A stretch of 59,653 nucleotides of DNA, the filler included. It is 5 parts of 5 records of this genome, joined end to end, with 100 filler letters (N's around TTAATTAATTAA, not from the genome) between each part and the next. Parts side by side here need not be neighbours in the genome. Positions count along the whole stretch, not along the records: positions 47,178 to 53,543 come from DRR723986_3507; 4 more parts are not named here. The stretch is one strand, 5' to 3'. Made by a program: the position numbers and the translations under genes. Under the pieces are notes generated by a model. That model saw nothing but the letters and a program-made list of their open reading frames with translations, did not search any database and had not been told where the DNA came from. Below are positions 22,489 to 53,643 of the stretch, one piece after another (position 1 is the first letter of the stretch; each line of letters starts with the position of its first letter).

Positions 22489-22588
22489 NNNNNNNNNNNN
22501 NNNNNNNNNNNNNNNNNNNNNNNNNNNNNNNNTTAATTAATTAANNNNNNNNNNNNNNNNNNNNNNNNNNNNNNNNNNNNNNNNNNNN
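22489..22588. other. Artificial contig linker
   Basis: 44 N + TTAATTAATTAA (stops in all six frames) + 44 N; identical at four places. Confidence 0.98.
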
Positions 22589-39628: not shown

Positions 39629-39728
39629 NNNNNNNNNNNNNNNNNNNNNNNNNNNNNNNNNNNNNNNNNNNNTTAATTAATTAANNNNNNNNNNNNNNNN
39701 NNNNNNNNNNNNNNNNNNNNNNNNNNNN
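39629..39728. other. Artificial contig linker
   Basis: 44 N + TTAATTAATTAA + 44 N. Confidence 0.98.
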
Positions 39729-47077: not shown

Positions 47078-47177
47078 NNNNNNNNNNNNNNNNNNNNNNN
47101 NNNNNNNNNNNNNNNNNNNNNTTAATTAATTAANNNNNNNNNNNNNNNNNNNNNNNNNNNNNNNNNNNNNNNNNNNN
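47078..47177. other. Artificial contig linker
   Basis: 44 N + TTAATTAATTAA + 44 N. Confidence 0.98.
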
Positions 47178-47206
47178 CCGCGCCATCAGCGCCGCCGGTG
47201 AAGGGG

Positions 47207-47235
47207 TATCTATGGCTTTCCTCTGGGGGCCGCAA
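47207..47235 (-). promoter_or_regulatory. Probable rRNA operon promoter firing off the left contig end
   Basis: Minus strand TTGCGG-17 bp-TAGATA then CCCCTTCACCGGCGGCGCTGA, with A-tracts upstream; resembles Rhodobacteraceae rrn promoters. Confidence 0.65.
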
Positions 47236-47382
47236 CCCCTTTTTTATTCCTTTGTCGTATTTTTTTCAAAAAACATGATTTTCTTTGAGTTTCAGTGGCT
47301 TGTGGAAATTTGATTGCGCTTTTGCCCTCGTGTAGGCATGAAAATTACCCAAGCCCACAGCACCCCTTCACAACATATTGGG

Positions 47383-47403
47383 TTATCCCCAGAGTTATCC
47401 CCA
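47383..47403 (+). repeat. Two tandem DnaA-box-like 9-mers
   Basis: TTATCCCCA at 47383-47391 and 47395-47403, each 8/9 to TTATCCACA. Confidence 0.55.
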
Positions 47404-47438
47404 ATCTGTGCCGAGTCGCCCCTGCCTTGTGCGCATAC

Positions 47439-48050
47439 TTACCCTAGGCTGGCCCGCCGATTCCGTGATTTGCGCCCCATGCGCAGCGCCAAAAGCAGCA
47501 AAATCGCCCCAAGCCACACGATTGGCTGCAGCTGCCAGCCCTTTGCTTGCATCACATAATGCAGCCCACCCAGCACAATCGCTGGATAGGTCAGCTTGTG
47601 CAGTTGCCCCCAGCGGGGCCCAAGGCGGCGCTGTGCGGCATTGGTGGAGGTCGCCGCCAAAGGCAGCAACAGCAAAAAAGCGGCCATGCCCACAGTTATA
47701 TAGGGGCGCTTTACAATGTCGGCCCAAATCGCCGTGACGCTGGCAATATCCAACACCAGCCACACCAAGAGATGCGCCACAACATAGACAAAGCCCATAA
47801 CCCCAGCCGCCCTGCGAAATCGCAGCAGGTTGATACCCAAATTCCTGCGCAGCGGCGTGATGGCCAAAGAGGCCACAAGATAGGCCAAGGCCACCTGCCC
47901 ATATAAATGTTCCAAAGCACGGATAGGTTCAGGCCCCAGCGCCCCGGTAAGCCCCTGCCAGAAGAACACCGGCAAGGGCACCGCCATACATATATATACG
48001 GCCCATGTCGGCACATGGCGCAGGGCGTGATTTAGCCTGTCGCGCAGCAC
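47439..48050 (-). CDS. msrQ: Methionine sulfoxide reductase heme-binding subunit MsrQ
   Basis: LAITPLRR, FRRAAG, KRPYITVG, LAATS, WGQLHKLTY. Confidence 0.93.
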   Translation of the reverse strand: MLRDRLNHALRHVPTWAVYICMAVPLPVFFWQGLTGALGPEPIRALEHLYGQVALAYLVASLAITPLRRNLGINLLRFRRAAGVMGFVYVVAHLLVWLVLDIASVTAIWADIVKRPYITVGMAAFLLLLPLAATSTNAAQRRLGPRWGQLHKLTYPAIVLGGLHYVMQAKGWQLQPIVWLGAILLLLALRMGRKSRNRRASLG

Positions 48051-48052
48051 GG

Positions 48053-48961
48053 TTAAAACTGCGCCTTCAGATCCATTCCCTTGTAAAGGCTGGCCACATC
48101 ACTGGCATAGCCATTCATCATAAGGGTTGGTTGCCGGCTGGCAAACAGGCCCCCGCCAATGCGCCGCTCTTGGGCTTGGCTCCAGCGTGGGTGGTCCACC
48201 TGCGGGTTGACGTTGCTGTAAAACCCGTATTCGCGGGGGTTGGCCTTGTTCCAGCTGGTGGGGGGCTGCCTGTCGGTTAGGGTGATGCGCACCACCGACT
48301 TGATCGATTTAAACCCATATTTCCATGGCACCACCAAACGCAGGGGCGCACCGTTTTGTGCCGGGATGTCGCGGCCATAAATACCGCTGGCCATGATGGT
48401 TAGCGGGTGCATCGCCTCGTCCAGGCGCAAGCCCTCGACATAGGGCCAATCGAGCACGGGATAGCGGGTGCCGGGCATTTCATCGCGGTTGAGATAGGTT
48501 TCAAAGGCAACATAGCGCGCATTGGCCTGCACCCCGGCCATTTCAAGCAGATCGGCCAGCTCGAACCCGTTCCATGGCACCACCATCGACCATGCCTCGA
48601 CACAGCGAAACCGGTAGATCCGCTCTTCGATTTGCATGCGGGCCAAGATATCTTCGATCGCATAGTCGCCGGGCCTATCGACCATACCATCGATGCGGAT
48701 GCTCCATGGCGATATGGTCATTTGCCCGGCATATTTGGCGGGATCGTCTTTGCCTGTGCCGAATTCATAAAAGTTGTTGTAGCTGGTGATATCTTCCCAA
48801 GAATTGGGGGCCAGCCCCTGCGCCTGCGCCGCTTGCGGCAGGCCCGCGGCCCCCATCAGCCCCGCGCCCGCCATGCCAGCCAACAGGTGGCGGCGGTTCA
48901 GCCATAGGGTTTCATCCGTTACATCGCTGGGCTTTAGGGTGTTTTTCCATCTCTGGGCCAT
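48053..48961 (-). CDS. msrP: Methionine sulfoxide reductase catalytic subunit MsrP
   Basis: Tat-like [48 protein letters not shown]; start ATG 48961. Confidence 0.95.
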
Positions 48962-49147
48962 GGCTGCCTCGGTTTGCGTGTCAACTAAGGCAAAGCTAAC
49001 GCAGGCACGGGCTGCATCCAACGCAAGCTTTCTCACAGTTGCGTGGCTGCATTGAAACGTTTTGCGGTTTGACATGGAACAAAGCCACGCAAAGGATGCA
49101 CCTTATAAAGACACGCAGCGCAGGCCATTGCCTAAGGAGTTGTATGA

Positions 49148-49585
49148 ATGAAACGATTGATCATTGCCGCCACGCTGGCCCTTAGCGTGGGCGCGGCCCA
49201 TGCCGATGGGATGGTGACATATGAAACCCAAGACAGTTTCGAAGATGTCGTGTTTGGGCTGGAAAACGCCATTCTTGATCTGGGGCTGGTGGTGGATCAT
49301 GTCTCGCACACGGGCGAGATGCTGGAACGCACCAAGGCCGATGTGGGCGGCACCGTTACCCTGTTTACCCAGGCCGATGTTTATTCCTTTTGCTCGGCCG
49401 CGCTGAGCCGCAAGGTGATGGAGGCCGATCCGATGAATCTGCGCTTTTGCCCTTACGATATTTTCGTGGCCCAACAGCCCGGCCAGCCGGTGATCATCGG
49501 CTATCGCACCTTCCCCGAGGGCGCGATGCAAGAGGTTCAGGCCATGCTCGATGGCATCGCCCGCACTGCCATTGGGCTGGATTGA
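49148..49585 (+). CDS. DUF302 domain secreted protein
   Basis: Signal peptide, FCSA and FCPY motifs; RBS AAGGAG. Confidence 0.8.
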   Translation: MKRLIIAATLALSVGAAHADGMVTYETQDSFEDVVFGLENAILDLGLVVDHVSHTGEMLERTKADVGGTVTLFTQADVYSFCSAALSRKVMEADPMNLRFCPYDIFVAQQPGQPVIIGYRTFPEGAMQEVQAMLDGIARTAIGLD

Positions 49586-49692
49586 TCACAGCGGCTAACG
49601 CCTGCTCACGATTATTCTATTCGACGGCGCAAAAAGGCGTGGCTTAGCAGCGCGCCTTTTCAAATCAAGCCCTGCACAAATATTTGAGGCAC

Positions 49693-49718
49693 GCATCCAC
49701 CCCCGGTTTTCCACCGTA
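49693..49718 (+). promoter_or_regulatory. Candidate ECF (RpoE-type) promoter of the fasciclin gene
   Basis: GCATCC-16 bp-CGTA about 50 nt upstream of ATG 49769. Confidence 0.4.
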
Positions 49719-49768
49719 AGCCAAACGATGCAACACAACGCATCCCCTTATCAGTGGAGAGAAAACAC

Positions 49769-50254
49769 ATGTTTCGTAGAACCTACCTTGGACTGACTGC
49801 TGCCCTCATGATCGCCGGCCCAGCCTTTGCCGGGGGGCATTCGAAAGATATCGTAGATACCGCCGTAGGCGCCGGCAGCTTTGGCACATTGGTGGCGGCA
49901 GTGCAGGCCGCAGGCCTTGTTGATACGCTCAAGGGCGAAGGCCCCTTCACCGTATTCGCGCCCACCGATGCAGCCTTTGCCGCCCTGCCCGCAGGCACCG
50001 TAGAAGAGCTGCTGAAACCCGAAAACAAAGACAAGCTGACCGCCATCCTGACCTACCACGTTGTGGCTGGCAAAGTGATGTCGGGCGATCTGTCTGATGG
50101 CCTAAGCGCCGCCACCGTGAATGGCGCCAACATCACCATCGGCACCATGGGCGGCGTAACCGTAAACGGCGCCAACGTGACCCAAGCCGATATCGAGGCA
50201 TCCAACGGCGTGATCCACGTGATCGACGCAGTCATCCTGCCGCCCGAAGGCTAA
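49769..50254 (+). CDS. Fasciclin (FAS1) domain protein
   Basis: Signal peptide, [30 protein letters not shown]. Confidence 0.95.
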
Positions 50255-50273
50255 GCAAAGCGCGAACCCACAG

Positions 50274-50302
50274 AAAAAGGCGGGGCAAGCCCCGCCTTTT
50301 TT
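50274..50302 (+). terminator. Rho-independent terminator after the fasciclin gene
   Basis: AAAAAGGCGGGGC-AA-GCCCCGCCTTTTTT. Confidence 0.88.
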
Positions 50303-50355
50303 ATGCCAGCGCCCGAGCTGGCGGTGGGGGGCTGGGTGATGTGGAAATGCACGCT

Positions 50356-50457
50356 TTGGGCGGGTGGTGGAGGTTGCGAAGTTGTGAGCCGAGGCCGCTG
50401 TTTGTGGTGGTCGAGGCCCTGAGCGGGCGTTCGTTTCTGATGCAGCCAATGTCTGCT
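50356..50457 (+). repeat. Left arm of the imperfect inverted repeat flanking the RT gene
   Basis: 50421-50457 matches the reverse complement of 52432-52467 at 31/37; 50356-50377 matches the reverse complement of 52501-52523 at 19/23 (manual alignment). Confidence 0.75.
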
Positions 50458-50710
50458 CAGAGCCCATTGTGACCGGCGCTGCGCTTTTAGTGAACGGTTT
50501 CGAACCTCGAATTGCTGCCATTGAACTTTGCTGTGCGGCCCAAATCCGGCCCACAGCTAACAATCTCCACGTGAAGATCCGGTCAACCCAACTGGGGTTT
50601 CACTTGAGGAGCATGCGTCTTGTTCAAGCACCAAGAAGATTGGGAAGCTTAGCCAATTTTTTTACAGGAAACTACTGTTGGTGGCCGCGCTTCCGACTTA
50701 AGCTAGCGCC

Positions 50711-52306
50711 ATGAAGTCTCGGTTCAGTTTAATAAATTCAGGTCTCTATCCTGAGACGCTACCTCCATGCTTTGTGTCAAAAGACGCAAAGCGCGCCTTT
50801 CATGGTCTCGTTGGTGCACTTGACAGCAACAAGTTCCACGATAAAAAGACGGAGTATGTTCGGTATAGCGGAACCAAGCATGACGGCAGTCGCCGCTTTT
50901 TCGGCACTCCCAACATCGTCTCCTACTTTCACGTTTCTAGTTTCATATGGAAGAACTGGGGACATTTTGAAGCCAACTACGCCTTATCACCATATTCTAT
51001 TGGCACGCCCAAGATTATGGATGAGGGCGAAGAACGAGCGGTTAAAGTTCCATCGCTTTCCGAGCTTTCGAAGCGGGCTTCGAAAAACCTGCGATACGCA
51101 CCCTTCGTTTTGAAGGCCGACATCGCTCAATGCTTCCCGAGCATCTACACGCATTCCATTGCTTGGGCCGCTCATGGAATTGAAGAGTCAAAGCTGGACA
51201 CGAACAAGGTTTCCAGCAGCAACTTCTTCAACGCGCTCGATTTCTTTGTTCGGAATGGGCAACGCGGAAACACGCGAGGGGTATTGGTCGGACCCGATGC
51301 ATACCGTCTGATCGCAGAATTCGTCTTGGCCAAAATCGATCACGAACTGAGCAAAGTCGTTGGTGACATGGTGGTCGGGGCGGTGCGCCACGTAGATGAT
51401 TATTACATTGGCCTTCAGACTGAACACGACGCACAATCGGTTCTTTCGCATTTGCGCGAGGTGCTTGCGACCTTCGAGTTGAACCTCAATGACCAGAAAA
51501 CGAAGATTCACTCAAGCTTGGACCCAATCAACGATCTTTGGGCGCAACGGCTGCGAGACCACATGAACTTCTTCGGATCTCATGTGGAGCACAGCAGGCT
51601 TGAACGCGCCATCACCGAGGCTGTCACGTCTGCTCAAGAGATAGGATCGGACAGTCCAATCAAAATCCTATTCCGGTCTTTTGACGAAGGGCGGGTCTAT
51701 AATTCACCCCAGTGGGATTTTGTTGAGCAAAATATTCAGAGGATCGTTCAGAAACATCCGCATGCAATTGACTACGCCTGTTTGCTCGTTGCGAAGCGCA
51801 AAGCGCGGGGGTTGGCCATCGACACGGAAGGTTGGCTTGCCGTCGCGGAGATCATTGTCAGGCGCAGTCTTGCACTAAACCATCATCATGAGGCGCTGTG
51901 GTTGGTTTGGTTGCTCATCGTTTGCGACATCCCGGTTCCGGTGCCGATGGTGGAAGAACTTGCGAAGTCCAAAAACGCACATATTCGCGCTTTGCTCGTG
52001 CAGGCGCATGTAGACAGCAAGCTCACCCGAAAACCGAAGCTTGCTCTAGGTGCTCCTCTTTCATCAGTGGATGCCAACTGGTTGGTTAATCTCGTTGCAC
52101 GCTCTCAAGAGTTTTCAAGGGCCGCCTTTTCCGGTCGTTACACTGACGAATTTGAGCACCTGGCCAGCAGGCACATCAAGCTCATAGATTTTGAAGACCA
52201 TATCAGTCGGATAACAGAACAAGACAGGCGAGCAATTAGTCGAACCAGATACGGATATGATGACGACGAGGATGACAACTTTGATCCTGACGACTGGGAA
52301 ATTTAA
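50711..52306 (+). CDS. Reverse transcriptase-like polymerase of the Abi/UG class 1 (DRT/AbiK-like) type; probable anti-phage protein
   Basis: GLYPETLPPCF N-terminus; KADIAQCFPSIYTHSIAWA (D137); GVLVGPDAYRLIAE; RHVDDY (D229, D230); LNLNDQKT; long helical C-terminal domain; more AT-rich than the flanking genes. Confidence 0.88.
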   Translation: MKSRFSLINSGLYPETLPPCFVSKDAKRAFHGLVGALDSNKFHDKKTEYVRYSGTKHDGSRRFFGTPNIVSYFHVSSFIWKNWGHFEANYALSPYSIGTPKIMDEGEERAVKVPSLSELSKRASKNLRYAPFVLKADIAQCFPSIYTHSIAWAAHGIEESKLDTNKVSSSNFFNALDFFVRNGQRGNTRGVLVGPDAYRLIAEFVLAKIDHELSKVVGDMVVGAVRHVDDYYIGLQTEHDAQSVLSHLREVLATFELNLNDQKTKIHSSLDPINDLWAQRLRDHMNFFGSHVEHSRLERAITEAVTSAQEIGSDSPIKILFRSFDEGRVYNSPQWDFVEQNIQRIVQKHPHAIDYACLLVAKRKARGLAIDTEGWLAVAEIIVRRSLALNHHHEALWLVWLLIVCDIPVPVPMVEELAKSKNAHIRALLVQAHVDSKLTRKPKLALGAPLSSVDANWLVNLVARSQEFSRAAFSGRYTDEFEHLASRHIKLIDFEDHISRITEQDRRAISRTRYGYDDDEDDNFDPDDWEI

Positions 52307-52431
52307 GAATGTGCGGAGCCGACTTTTTAGGGAAAGTAAGATTCAGGTGACGAACCTTGTACGTTTAGCGTCAGTAGTGAATGCGCGCAGGCCGCATTAG
52401 GAACTTTGCGCTGCAGTCTCATTGCACTGAA

Positions 52432-52523
52432 AGCAGACCTTGGCGCAACAGCAGCGAAAGCCCGCTCCGTCCCACTCAGCAGACCTCTGTGCAAAGTGCA
52501 GCAAAACTCCACTCCCCGCCCAA
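52432..52523 (-). repeat. Right arm of the inverted repeat, built of two ~46-bp tandem units
   Basis: AGCAGACCT at 52432 and 52478, each followed by GCAA...GCAGC(G/A)AAA...CTCC; reverse complement matches 50356-50457. Confidence 0.75.
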
Positions 52524-52632
52524 CCCTGTCGAAACGGTATAAACGCCGCGTTGCTGCATTAATGCCCGCTGTGGGCTTGGCGGCGGTTGCATCGCTTTTG
52601 TGTCGCCCCCATAGCCCGCTGGCAGATATATT

Positions 52633-52664
52633 AAAAAAACAGGCGGCCTTTGGGGCCGCCTGTT
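52633..52664 (-). terminator. Rho-independent terminator of clpB
   Basis: AACAGGCGGCC / GGCCGCCTGTT stem with an A7 tract (U-tract on the minus strand). Confidence 0.85.
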
Positions 52665-52670
52665 GGGGGG

Positions 52671-53543
52671 TTAGTGCACCACCGCGTCATTGGGTTTGGG
52701 GCGGTTGGTGGCGGCCAGTTTGCTGCCAATCACCAGCCCCTCGCTGCCCGCTGATATGGGCAGCGTGGCGCCCTCGGCGATGTCGCCTGCCAGCAGCATT
52801 TCGGCCAGCGGGTCTTGCACCGTGCGCTGGATCACCCGTTTCAGGGGGCGTGCGCCAAACACCGGGTCGTAGCCCTCGTCGGCCAGCCATTTGCGCGCCT
52901 CTGGATCGACGGCCAGCGTAATATTGCGCCCCGCCAGCCGCTTTTGCAGCCGCGCCAGCTGGATATCGACGATACCGCCCATATCGGCGCGGGCCAGGCG
53001 ATCGAAGATGATGGTTTCATCCAGGCGGTTCAGGAATTCGGGGCGGAAATGGGCCCGCACCGCATCCATCACATCACGCTTGGCGCTGGCGGCATCGGCG
53101 CCATCGGGCAGCTGGCTTAGCGCCTGCGCGCCCAGGTTCGATGTCAGCACAATCAGCGTTTGCTTGAAATCCACCGTGCGGCCCTGGCCATCGGTCAGCA
53201 CCCCATCATCGAGCACCTGCAGCAGCACGTTGAACACATCGGGGTGGGCCTTTTCCACCTCGTCAAACAGCACCACCTGATAGGGCCGGCGGCGCACGGC
53301 CTCGGTCAGCACCCCGCCCTCGTCATAGCCCACATAGCCAGGGGGCGCCCCGATCAGCCGCGATACGGCGTGTTTTTCCATGAATTCAGACATATCGATG
53401 CGCACCATCGCATTGTCATCATCAAACAAAAACTCGGCCACGGCCTTGGTCAGCTCGGTTTTGCCCACACCCGTCGGGCCCAAGAACAAAAACGAGCCCA
53501 GCGGCCGGTTTTCATCGTTCAGCCCCGCCCGCGCCCGGCGCAC
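52671..53543 (-). CDS. clpB: Chaperone ClpB, C-terminal AAA domain (5'-truncated)
   Basis: [57 protein letters not shown]. Confidence 0.95.
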
Positions 53544-53643
53544 NNNNNNNNNNNNNNNNNNNNNNNNNNNNNNNNNNNNNNNNNNNNTTAATTAATTAAN
53601 NNNNNNNNNNNNNNNNNNNNNNNNNNNNNNNNNNNNNNNNNNN
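53544..53643. other. Artificial contig linker
   Basis: 44 N + TTAATTAATTAA + 44 N. Confidence 0.98.

Follow-up and report, generated by a model that had tools for sequence, protein, structure and literature searches.

How did a single reverse transcriptase (RT) gene, framed by inverted repeats and accompanied by no mobility gene, come to lie between two convergent core genes? A sequence-only reading of this DNA had proposed a non-autonomous gene cassette whose ends are recombination sites acted on in trans, or else an insertion hotspot. The window (the whole stretch of DNA analysed, 59 653 nucleotides) consists of contigs strung together via N runs and a linker (22533-22544, 39673-39684, 47122-47133 and 53588-53599); gene order across these joints is meaningless. 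The contig under study occupies positions 47178-53543 of the window, and clpB is truncated by its end. The following features were delineated. Repeat units are numbered U1 to U6 from left to right, and scores and ranks are those of the target matrix described below.

49769..50254, + strand: fasciclin-domain gene, left flank (Pfam PF02469, E 7.7e-41)
50274..50301, + strand: terminator-like hairpin behind the fasciclin gene; runs X17 and X19 diverge just after it, at 50304-50307 (a joint and a loose end)
50315..50363, no strand: decayed outer unit U1 with spacer 50358-50363; weak (score 8.1, minus strand)
50364..50419, no strand: decayed unit U2 with spacer AGGCCC (50414-50419); predicted cut 50419/50420, the left cassette edge (score 13.4, rank 4 of 119,260)
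50420..50465, no strand: left terminal hairpin unit U3 (50420-50459) with inner spacer GAGCCC; inverted copy of U4 (score 20.4, rank 1)
50459/50460, minus strand: second predicted cut, on the U3 side (target matrix)
50711..52306, + strand: DRT6 (UG12) reverse transcriptase, 531 aa (PADLOC Drt6; motif HVDD at residues 227-230)
52430..52475, no strand: right terminal hairpin unit U4 (52430-52468) with GTCC-type spacer; predicted cut 52468/52469, the right cassette edge (score 15.8, rank 2)
52476..52521, no strand: outer unit U5 with spacer CCGCCC (52516-52521); 46-nt direct repeat of U4, family D20 (score 8.8)
52522..52578, no strand: decayed outermost unit U6 with spacer; weak (score 6.6)
52638..52664, - strand: clpB terminator-like hairpin; identity of other strains (genome G002, runs X17 and X19) resumes at 52634
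52671..53543, - strand: 3' part of clpB, truncated by the contig end (TIGR03346, E 2.7e-139)

The Pfam and TIGR profiles and the two hairpins confirmed that the RT unit lies between the terminators of the convergent fasciclin (+) and clpB (-) genes. It was also correctly read as encoding no transposase or integrase, the 531-aa RT being the sole long ORF between fasciclin and clpB. Tblastn of the window with two queries, a tyrosine recombinase and an IS91 transposase, gave no match, and an autonomous element with both genes and conserved ends was absent from the window. In runs X16 and X17, which belong to two studies and are not marked as the source of the window, one contig each spans the insert with 0 differences; the insert is therefore real DNA and an assembly artefact is excluded.

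The ORF matched the PADLOC Drt6 profile over its full length (477.5 bits, residues 3-524), the next best profile being Drt4 (261.8 bits). On this basis it is DRT6 (UG12), a known single-gene anti-phage RT, the defence activity of the present copy being putative. Residues D137, D229 and D230 are invariant in 12/12 aligned homologues. The GC content of the gene is 50% and its GC3 0.57, versus 0.70-0.79 in the neighbour genes. DRT6 stands alone here, with neither a second long ORF nor an Rfam match at threshold. A first guess, DRT9 with an upstream RNA, was ruled out by PADLOC and Rfam. UG12 was named DRT6 after it gave moderate defence against T5 and ZL-19 (PMC9226505, in the part available). 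DRT6 is described as a single gene whose product synthesizes DNA linked to protein, needs no template and has a phage DNA-binding protein as its trigger (PMC12783706, in excerpt). By analogy, the copy studied here most likely works as published, by protein-primed, template-free ssDNA synthesis that is toxic upon phage infection. It shares with DRT6 the full-length best match, the single-gene organization, the intact catalytic aspartates and an RT domain followed by a long C-terminal region. Nothing notable differs in the protein sequence; the difference is that the gene would be the cargo of a cassette.

A DRT6 homologue that is 93% identical is present in Pontivivens insulae. The DRT6 search of the plasmids gave no match, and that of 401 family genomes returned solely three distant RTs (27-34% identical). 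A very strong site of the family described below (score 23.1, L255:2993) lies just downstream of a distant RT (27% identical). In the metagenome loci L002, L004 and L005, the DRT6 relative lies directly behind a long ORF, which we take to resemble a type I restriction subunit; another relative (L003/L257) lies inside a viral contig. The arms are absent from these loci. Because a site scoring at least 12 was found near the gene in only one of eight metagenome loci of DRT6 relatives (L007; one flank is missing in L001 and in L005, and the context of L001 is the same as that of L002), the arms are not part of the DRT6 system.

The inverted arms and the site family

Both inverted matches described earlier were recovered as written: 50421-50457 aligns with the reverse complement of 52432-52467 at 31 of 37 positions, and 50356-50377 with that of 52501-52523 at 19 of 23. 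They lie in collinear inverted order inside one gapped alignment (50356-50479 versus 52408-52523). The match was significant against shuffled controls, with a local score of 42 versus a mean of 20.0 (sd 2.4, max 36) in 2000 dinucleotide shuffles, 0 of which reached 42. Under +1/-1 scoring, the score was 36 versus a shuffle mean of 13.3 (max 24; 0/2000 reached 36). The arms proved to be arrays of hairpin units with a period of 46 nt (family D20) and therefore match in direct orientation too (score 28). Weaker units lengthen them to about 50315 on the left and 52578 on the right. The terminal units U3 and U4 score 21 when inverted and 3 when direct, and the inverted match had been seen because these two are inverted copies. 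Instead of ~100-bp terminal inverted repeats of one element, as had been supposed, the ends are nested copies of a dispersed spacer plus hairpin site.

In this site, a hairpin unit of 39 nt, with two 12-nt halves flanking 15-16 nt, precedes a spacer of 6-7 nt; a further unit often comes next, at a period of ~46 nt. By sequence comparison, each arm is a short array of this dispersed Rhodobacterales repeat. The cassette proper would extend from about U3 (50420) to U4 (52468), with weaker units outside on both sides. The right arm matched 23 alphaproteobacterial plasmid records and the left arm 1. Copies of the repeat are often merely 70-85% alike, and the degenerate units occur in mosaics and as dispersed arrays around unrelated genes. 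One end motif was found in 72/251 family genomes, versus 12 for the reversed control. At most 1.4 kb upstream of the end motif, a partner site was directed inward at 5 of 34 loci and outward at 8 of 34 (~1.6 expected per strand). Two loci (L277 and L285) reproduce the anatomy of the window exactly. A linker of ~250-350 bp, free of genes and made of degenerate units, separates cargo modules many times over on the Phaeobacter plasmids W01-W10 (for instance at W01 60690-61020).

The arm-to-arm duplex was calculated at -69.7 kcal/mol, versus -31 +/- 5 kcal/mol for shuffles. Pairing of the arms with looping out of the RT, as had been suggested, is thus possible in the model, where it is feasible by energy alone. 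Inverted arms that are able to pair would also suit a MITE or IS remnant with terminal inverted repeats, or an RNA or ssDNA structure that acts in cis in the DRT6 system. Such an origin is extremely unlikely: none of 20 candidate end pairs of the arms showed a target duplication of at least 4 bp, the Rfam search gave no family at threshold, and units found around unrelated genes are not confined to the termini of one element family. DRT6 itself is a template-free single gene (PMC12783706, same excerpt), and seven of its eight relatives, including the two without one flank, showed no nearby site at the score given above. Folding of the whole arms was no better than that of shuffles (z -0.3 to +0.8; z -1.65 for the 51-nt left core), and single units of the window fold weakly (-0.1 to -5.9 kcal/mol).

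Variation of the fasciclin-clpB gap

A total of 111 loci was examined. Fasciclin and clpB are convergent within 8 kb in 39 of them (one a duplicate), and the gap is below 250 bp in 24. A site was present in 2/39 of these convergent loci, which is chance level. The gap is therefore no general hotspot for these sites, nor one kept across the family. Relatives without the RT, which might have retained both arms, also lack the arms. In the genus genomes G001 and G002, the break lies at the terminators and neither arms nor RT are present; the strict site pattern gave 1 and 2 weak matches, respectively. In G002, a low-GC ORF of 147 aa with no Pfam family lies directly against the clpB terminator (L096:172-615).

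Within the species and the genus, the sequences compared indicate that the gap is variable in two layers. In the outer layer, other strains swap the whole 50305-52633 stretch, with junctions outside the arms: runs X17 and X19 diverge at 50304-50307 and at 52634. Sequencing depth in run X17 was 13 for the insert versus 31-36 for the flanks. In the inner layer, a 990-bp contig of run X18, assembled apart from the fasciclin contig, matches 50322-50419 and continues with 866 unlike bases, so that the match stops exactly at the predicted cut at 50419. The RT had no cover in run X18, although missing cover, in this run as in X19, is by itself no proof of absence. The right-hand X18 contig begins matching at 52495, inside U5 and off any predicted cut.

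Recombinase-IS91 elements and cargo exchange

One plasmid match of an arm adjoined a tyrosine recombinase gene followed by an IS91 transposase gene. The transposase has the domains Y2_Tnp and Zn_Tnp_IS91, and the recombinase Phage_int_SAM_4 and Phage_integrase. We take the element to be of the IS91 family with an upstream tyrosine recombinase, ISAzo26/ISShvi3-like (ISfinder names); this same element type was found at the sites, but outside the window. Classical IS91 targets a tetranucleotide. Recombinase-IS91 elements were detected in 338 plasmid records and in 31/251 family genomes. Parsing of 51 element loci gave a right end for 36, or 34 after removal of duplicates, and 15/51 were unparsed. 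The right flanks of 32 elements show the unit consensus from the first base; in these alignments, recombinase-IS91 elements insert exactly at the spacer/unit edge. A target matrix was built from 32 right and 28 left element flanks alone, the window being left out. It ranked 50459/50460, 52468/52469 and 50419/50420 as 1st, 2nd and 4th of 119,260 window positions.

In 27/28 elements with both ends, the element ends in the same two bases as the target spacer (left junction). These two bases are also complementary to an internal dinucleotide in 34/34 parsed elements, in 3 of which the script picked the pairing end from two candidates. The elements are related and the 34 are not independent, so the four pair types (CC 12, GT 11, GG 7, GA 4) weigh more than the total. 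Six more distant elements were read by eye: four follow the dinucleotide rule, with two further pair types, one fits partly and one is interrupted. Like attC, a natural end-to-end element junction folds as a single long hairpin whose middle is unpaired (-23.8 kcal/mol for one strand and -35.6 for the other, versus -11.7 +/- 2.6 for shuffles). In L218:2853-2962 and L220 (whole contigs), the right end of the element runs straight into its left end, as in a circle or a tandem. One circular record of 4,862 bp, deposited as a plasmid (L211, NZ_CP155766.1), comprises the element and ~2 kb of passenger DNA, without any further annotated gene, and may represent an excised circle. The first two element bases vary among close relatives (L139, L203-L251), and their composition resembles that of the first two bases of the right flanks. 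They may have been carried over from the previous target, which would fit this composition.

Eight Phaeobacter plasmids were compared from joined tiles (three without the last 3-4 kb). A break was scored wherever a block shared by plasmids (minimum 200 bp, minimum 96% identity) ended, record ends being dropped. Among 173 synteny breaks, 20 fell within -7..+3 of a predicted cut, versus 0.45 expected for random positions (max 3 in 500 draws) and 1.8 for local shifts of 15-150 bp (max 6); one matrix-training element lies on one of these eight plasmids. The other 153 breaks lay away from any site above threshold, and many were indels in repeats or other elements. Blocks common on the unit side stop 4-8 bases into the spacer and those common on the spacer side stop 0-2 bases past it, which places the crossover at the spacer edge. 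Two Phaeobacter plasmids carry, in different surroundings, a GNAT block of 695 bp at 99.9% identity. Both of its ends lie inside a spacer, and on both plasmids it is bounded by the end type of U4 (GTCC-type). Other cargo between cassette ends included GNAT and TPR proteins and unknown ORFs (5 proteins scanned). Of eight related plasmids, W08 alone (NZ_CP081244.1, 90903-94935) has a DRT3 region, which starts exactly at a predicted cut.

Degenerate, mosaic units, together with the replacement of the whole interval at the locus through junctions beside core genes, might also result from REP/NIME-like dispersed hairpins among which ordinary recombination, homologous or by microhomology, swaps the cargo with no dedicated enzyme. 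However, the breaks cluster at the spacer and not along the unit (nearest-site offsets of +6 to +16 were seen 3 times, versus the 20 at -7..+3), and the copies are often too little alike (70-85%) for this explanation, which we consider very unlikely. REP/BIME and the Neisseria NTS/SRM repeats with their Ssn nucleases (PMC11893778, in the part available) are likewise dispersed hairpin repeats in mosaics around accessory genes, but the stems described here bear no GTAG/CGTC foot, no RAYT or Ssn gene lies at the locus, and exchange is position-specific.

The arms are, with high probability, sites of position-specific exchange. The non-autonomous cassette of the sequence-only reading, with ends that are recombination sites acted on in trans, found support: other cargo is bounded by copies of the repeat, plasmid breaks fall at spacers, relatives lack both arms and RT, and run X18 diverges at the cut. 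For the enzyme that would act there, we infer a candidate.

A cassette model and its meaning

DRT6 would be the cargo of a non-autonomous cassette (~50420-52468) with an inward-facing site copy at each end. Leftover units of earlier modules would lie outside the cassette and would give the arms their nested inverted look. Modules would be exchanged by a cut at the spacer/unit edge, the sole need being a shared dinucleotide. An IntI-like recombinase would arrive on a passing element and recombine folded single-stranded donors with sites, by a one-strand exchange on the folded ssDNA donor that replication would complete. The same recombinase would move cargo modules in trans, as IntI moves integron cassettes. 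Each element lineage would choose its crossover via a two-base core, of which the folded element end contains two copies paired with each other, and specificity could therefore be reprogrammed by changing the pair. Sequence comparison established the site and the exchange point, and showed that the element hits its target exactly and that the core covaries. The recombinase is the prime suspect for the swapping enzyme because its element inserts at the exchange points. The recombinase group is placed as the closest relative of IntI in a preprint that also mentions the association of IS91-family elements with a tyrosine recombinase (bioRxiv 10.1101/542381, in excerpt). Against TIGR02249, the element recombinase scored 167 bits, below the profile cut-off. 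The model of the DRT6 cassette as a whole, with inward-facing site copies at its ends, exchange at the spacer edge and an IntI-like recombinase in trans, could as well be right as wrong. That the pair of recombinase and IS91 transposase is the mover of the cargo falls just short of such a balance.

The main rival, possible although doubtful, is a cassette system driven by a different recombinase, either host XerC/XerD or an unrecognised integrase; the recombinase-IS91 element would merely parasitise its sites. Most site-bearing genomes and plasmids are without the element: 57/72 motif-bearing genomes show none, and it was found on 1/8 shuffled plasmids in a search of the plasmids alone. The end motif was present in 15/31 genomes with the element and in 57/220 without it (Fisher p 0.018), a weak co-occurrence that may reflect mobile-element load. 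Cassette ends are also without the attC-like fold of the element's donor structure, which counts against the element as mover, and an IS91-like element lies beside an attC site in Shewanella (PMC9229058, in the part available). On the other side, no other recombinase was seen beside the arrays of the eight plasmids, where other recombinase-like matches were 23-31% identical and confined to two plasmids. Element insertions and cargo breaks share the same edge and dinucleotide classes, and the left end of the element itself is closely similar to the GTCC-type cassette end.

This last likeness, of a cassette end to the element end upstream of the recombinase, would also be expected from ISCR-type rolling-circle capture, in which the IS91 transposase reads past the terminus, halts at a GTCC-type mimic end and takes cargo, the element being lost later. 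Flanking DNA is mobilised by IS91 read-through (PMC9330008, in excerpt), and the 4,862-bp circular record joins the element to passenger DNA. Capture of this kind is nevertheless unlikely: the window cassette and the GNAT block have no element end bearing the ori-side hairpin, CC-type ends are unlike the terminus, and each case demands a precise loss of the element.

The exchange by an IntI-like recombinase that we favour was compared with known systems. In integron cassettes, the R'' RYYYAAC and R' GTTRRRY cores frame the attC palindrome. The arms are without such a RYYYAAC...GTTRRRY pair; GTTRRRY is absent from both and one lone RYYYAAC occurs at 52518. The present system has in common with integron cassettes and CALINs that the modules mostly hold one or a few genes and no mobility gene, that the sites are hairpins, that exchange takes place at a fixed point with a very short shared core, and that the recombinase is of the IntI subgroup. 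In contrast to the integron, with one site per cassette in direct order, hairpin units stand here at both ends and are inverted. The core dinucleotide varies here, and no intI or attI was seen in the window, including by tblastn with a related recombinase. The pdif modules of Acinetobacter resemble the present ones in that palindromic two-arm sites with a 6-nt spacer bound swappable plasmid modules. They differ in that the arms described here look unlike dif by eye, an extra half-site lies 15-16 nt inward, and the crossover is at the edge of spacers of unequal length.

A literature search found no description of these sites, of the element's exact target, of the covarying core or of the folded junction; most subscription papers, ISfinder/TnCentral and supplements lay outside its scope and may hold one. 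DRT6 is a known defence gene, and the integron-like cassette system around it is apparently undescribed. What is new here is the link between a dispersed roseobacter repeat and the targeting of recombinase-IS91 elements. The model names a site, a cut position, a core rule and a candidate enzyme, and is thereby open to decision in a single plasmid assay.

To our knowledge, Alphaproteobacteria lack integrons. We propose, tentatively and with somewhat more doubt than confidence, that they may have an integron-like cassette system without a platform, in which defence and accessory genes lie between dispersed sites and are shuffled in trans, with a lineage-specific two-base core, by a mobile IntI-like recombinase that travels with a rolling-circle transposase, the supplier of ssDNA circles. 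Single defence genes (DRT6 here, DRT3 on a Phaeobacter plasmid) would thereby have a concrete route into sites between core genes without a mobility gene of their own, and this route would operate in a group thought to lack integrons. The recombinase of IS91-type elements, so far unexplained and the closest relative of IntI, would also gain a role that can be tested, with a bearing on the origins of integrons.
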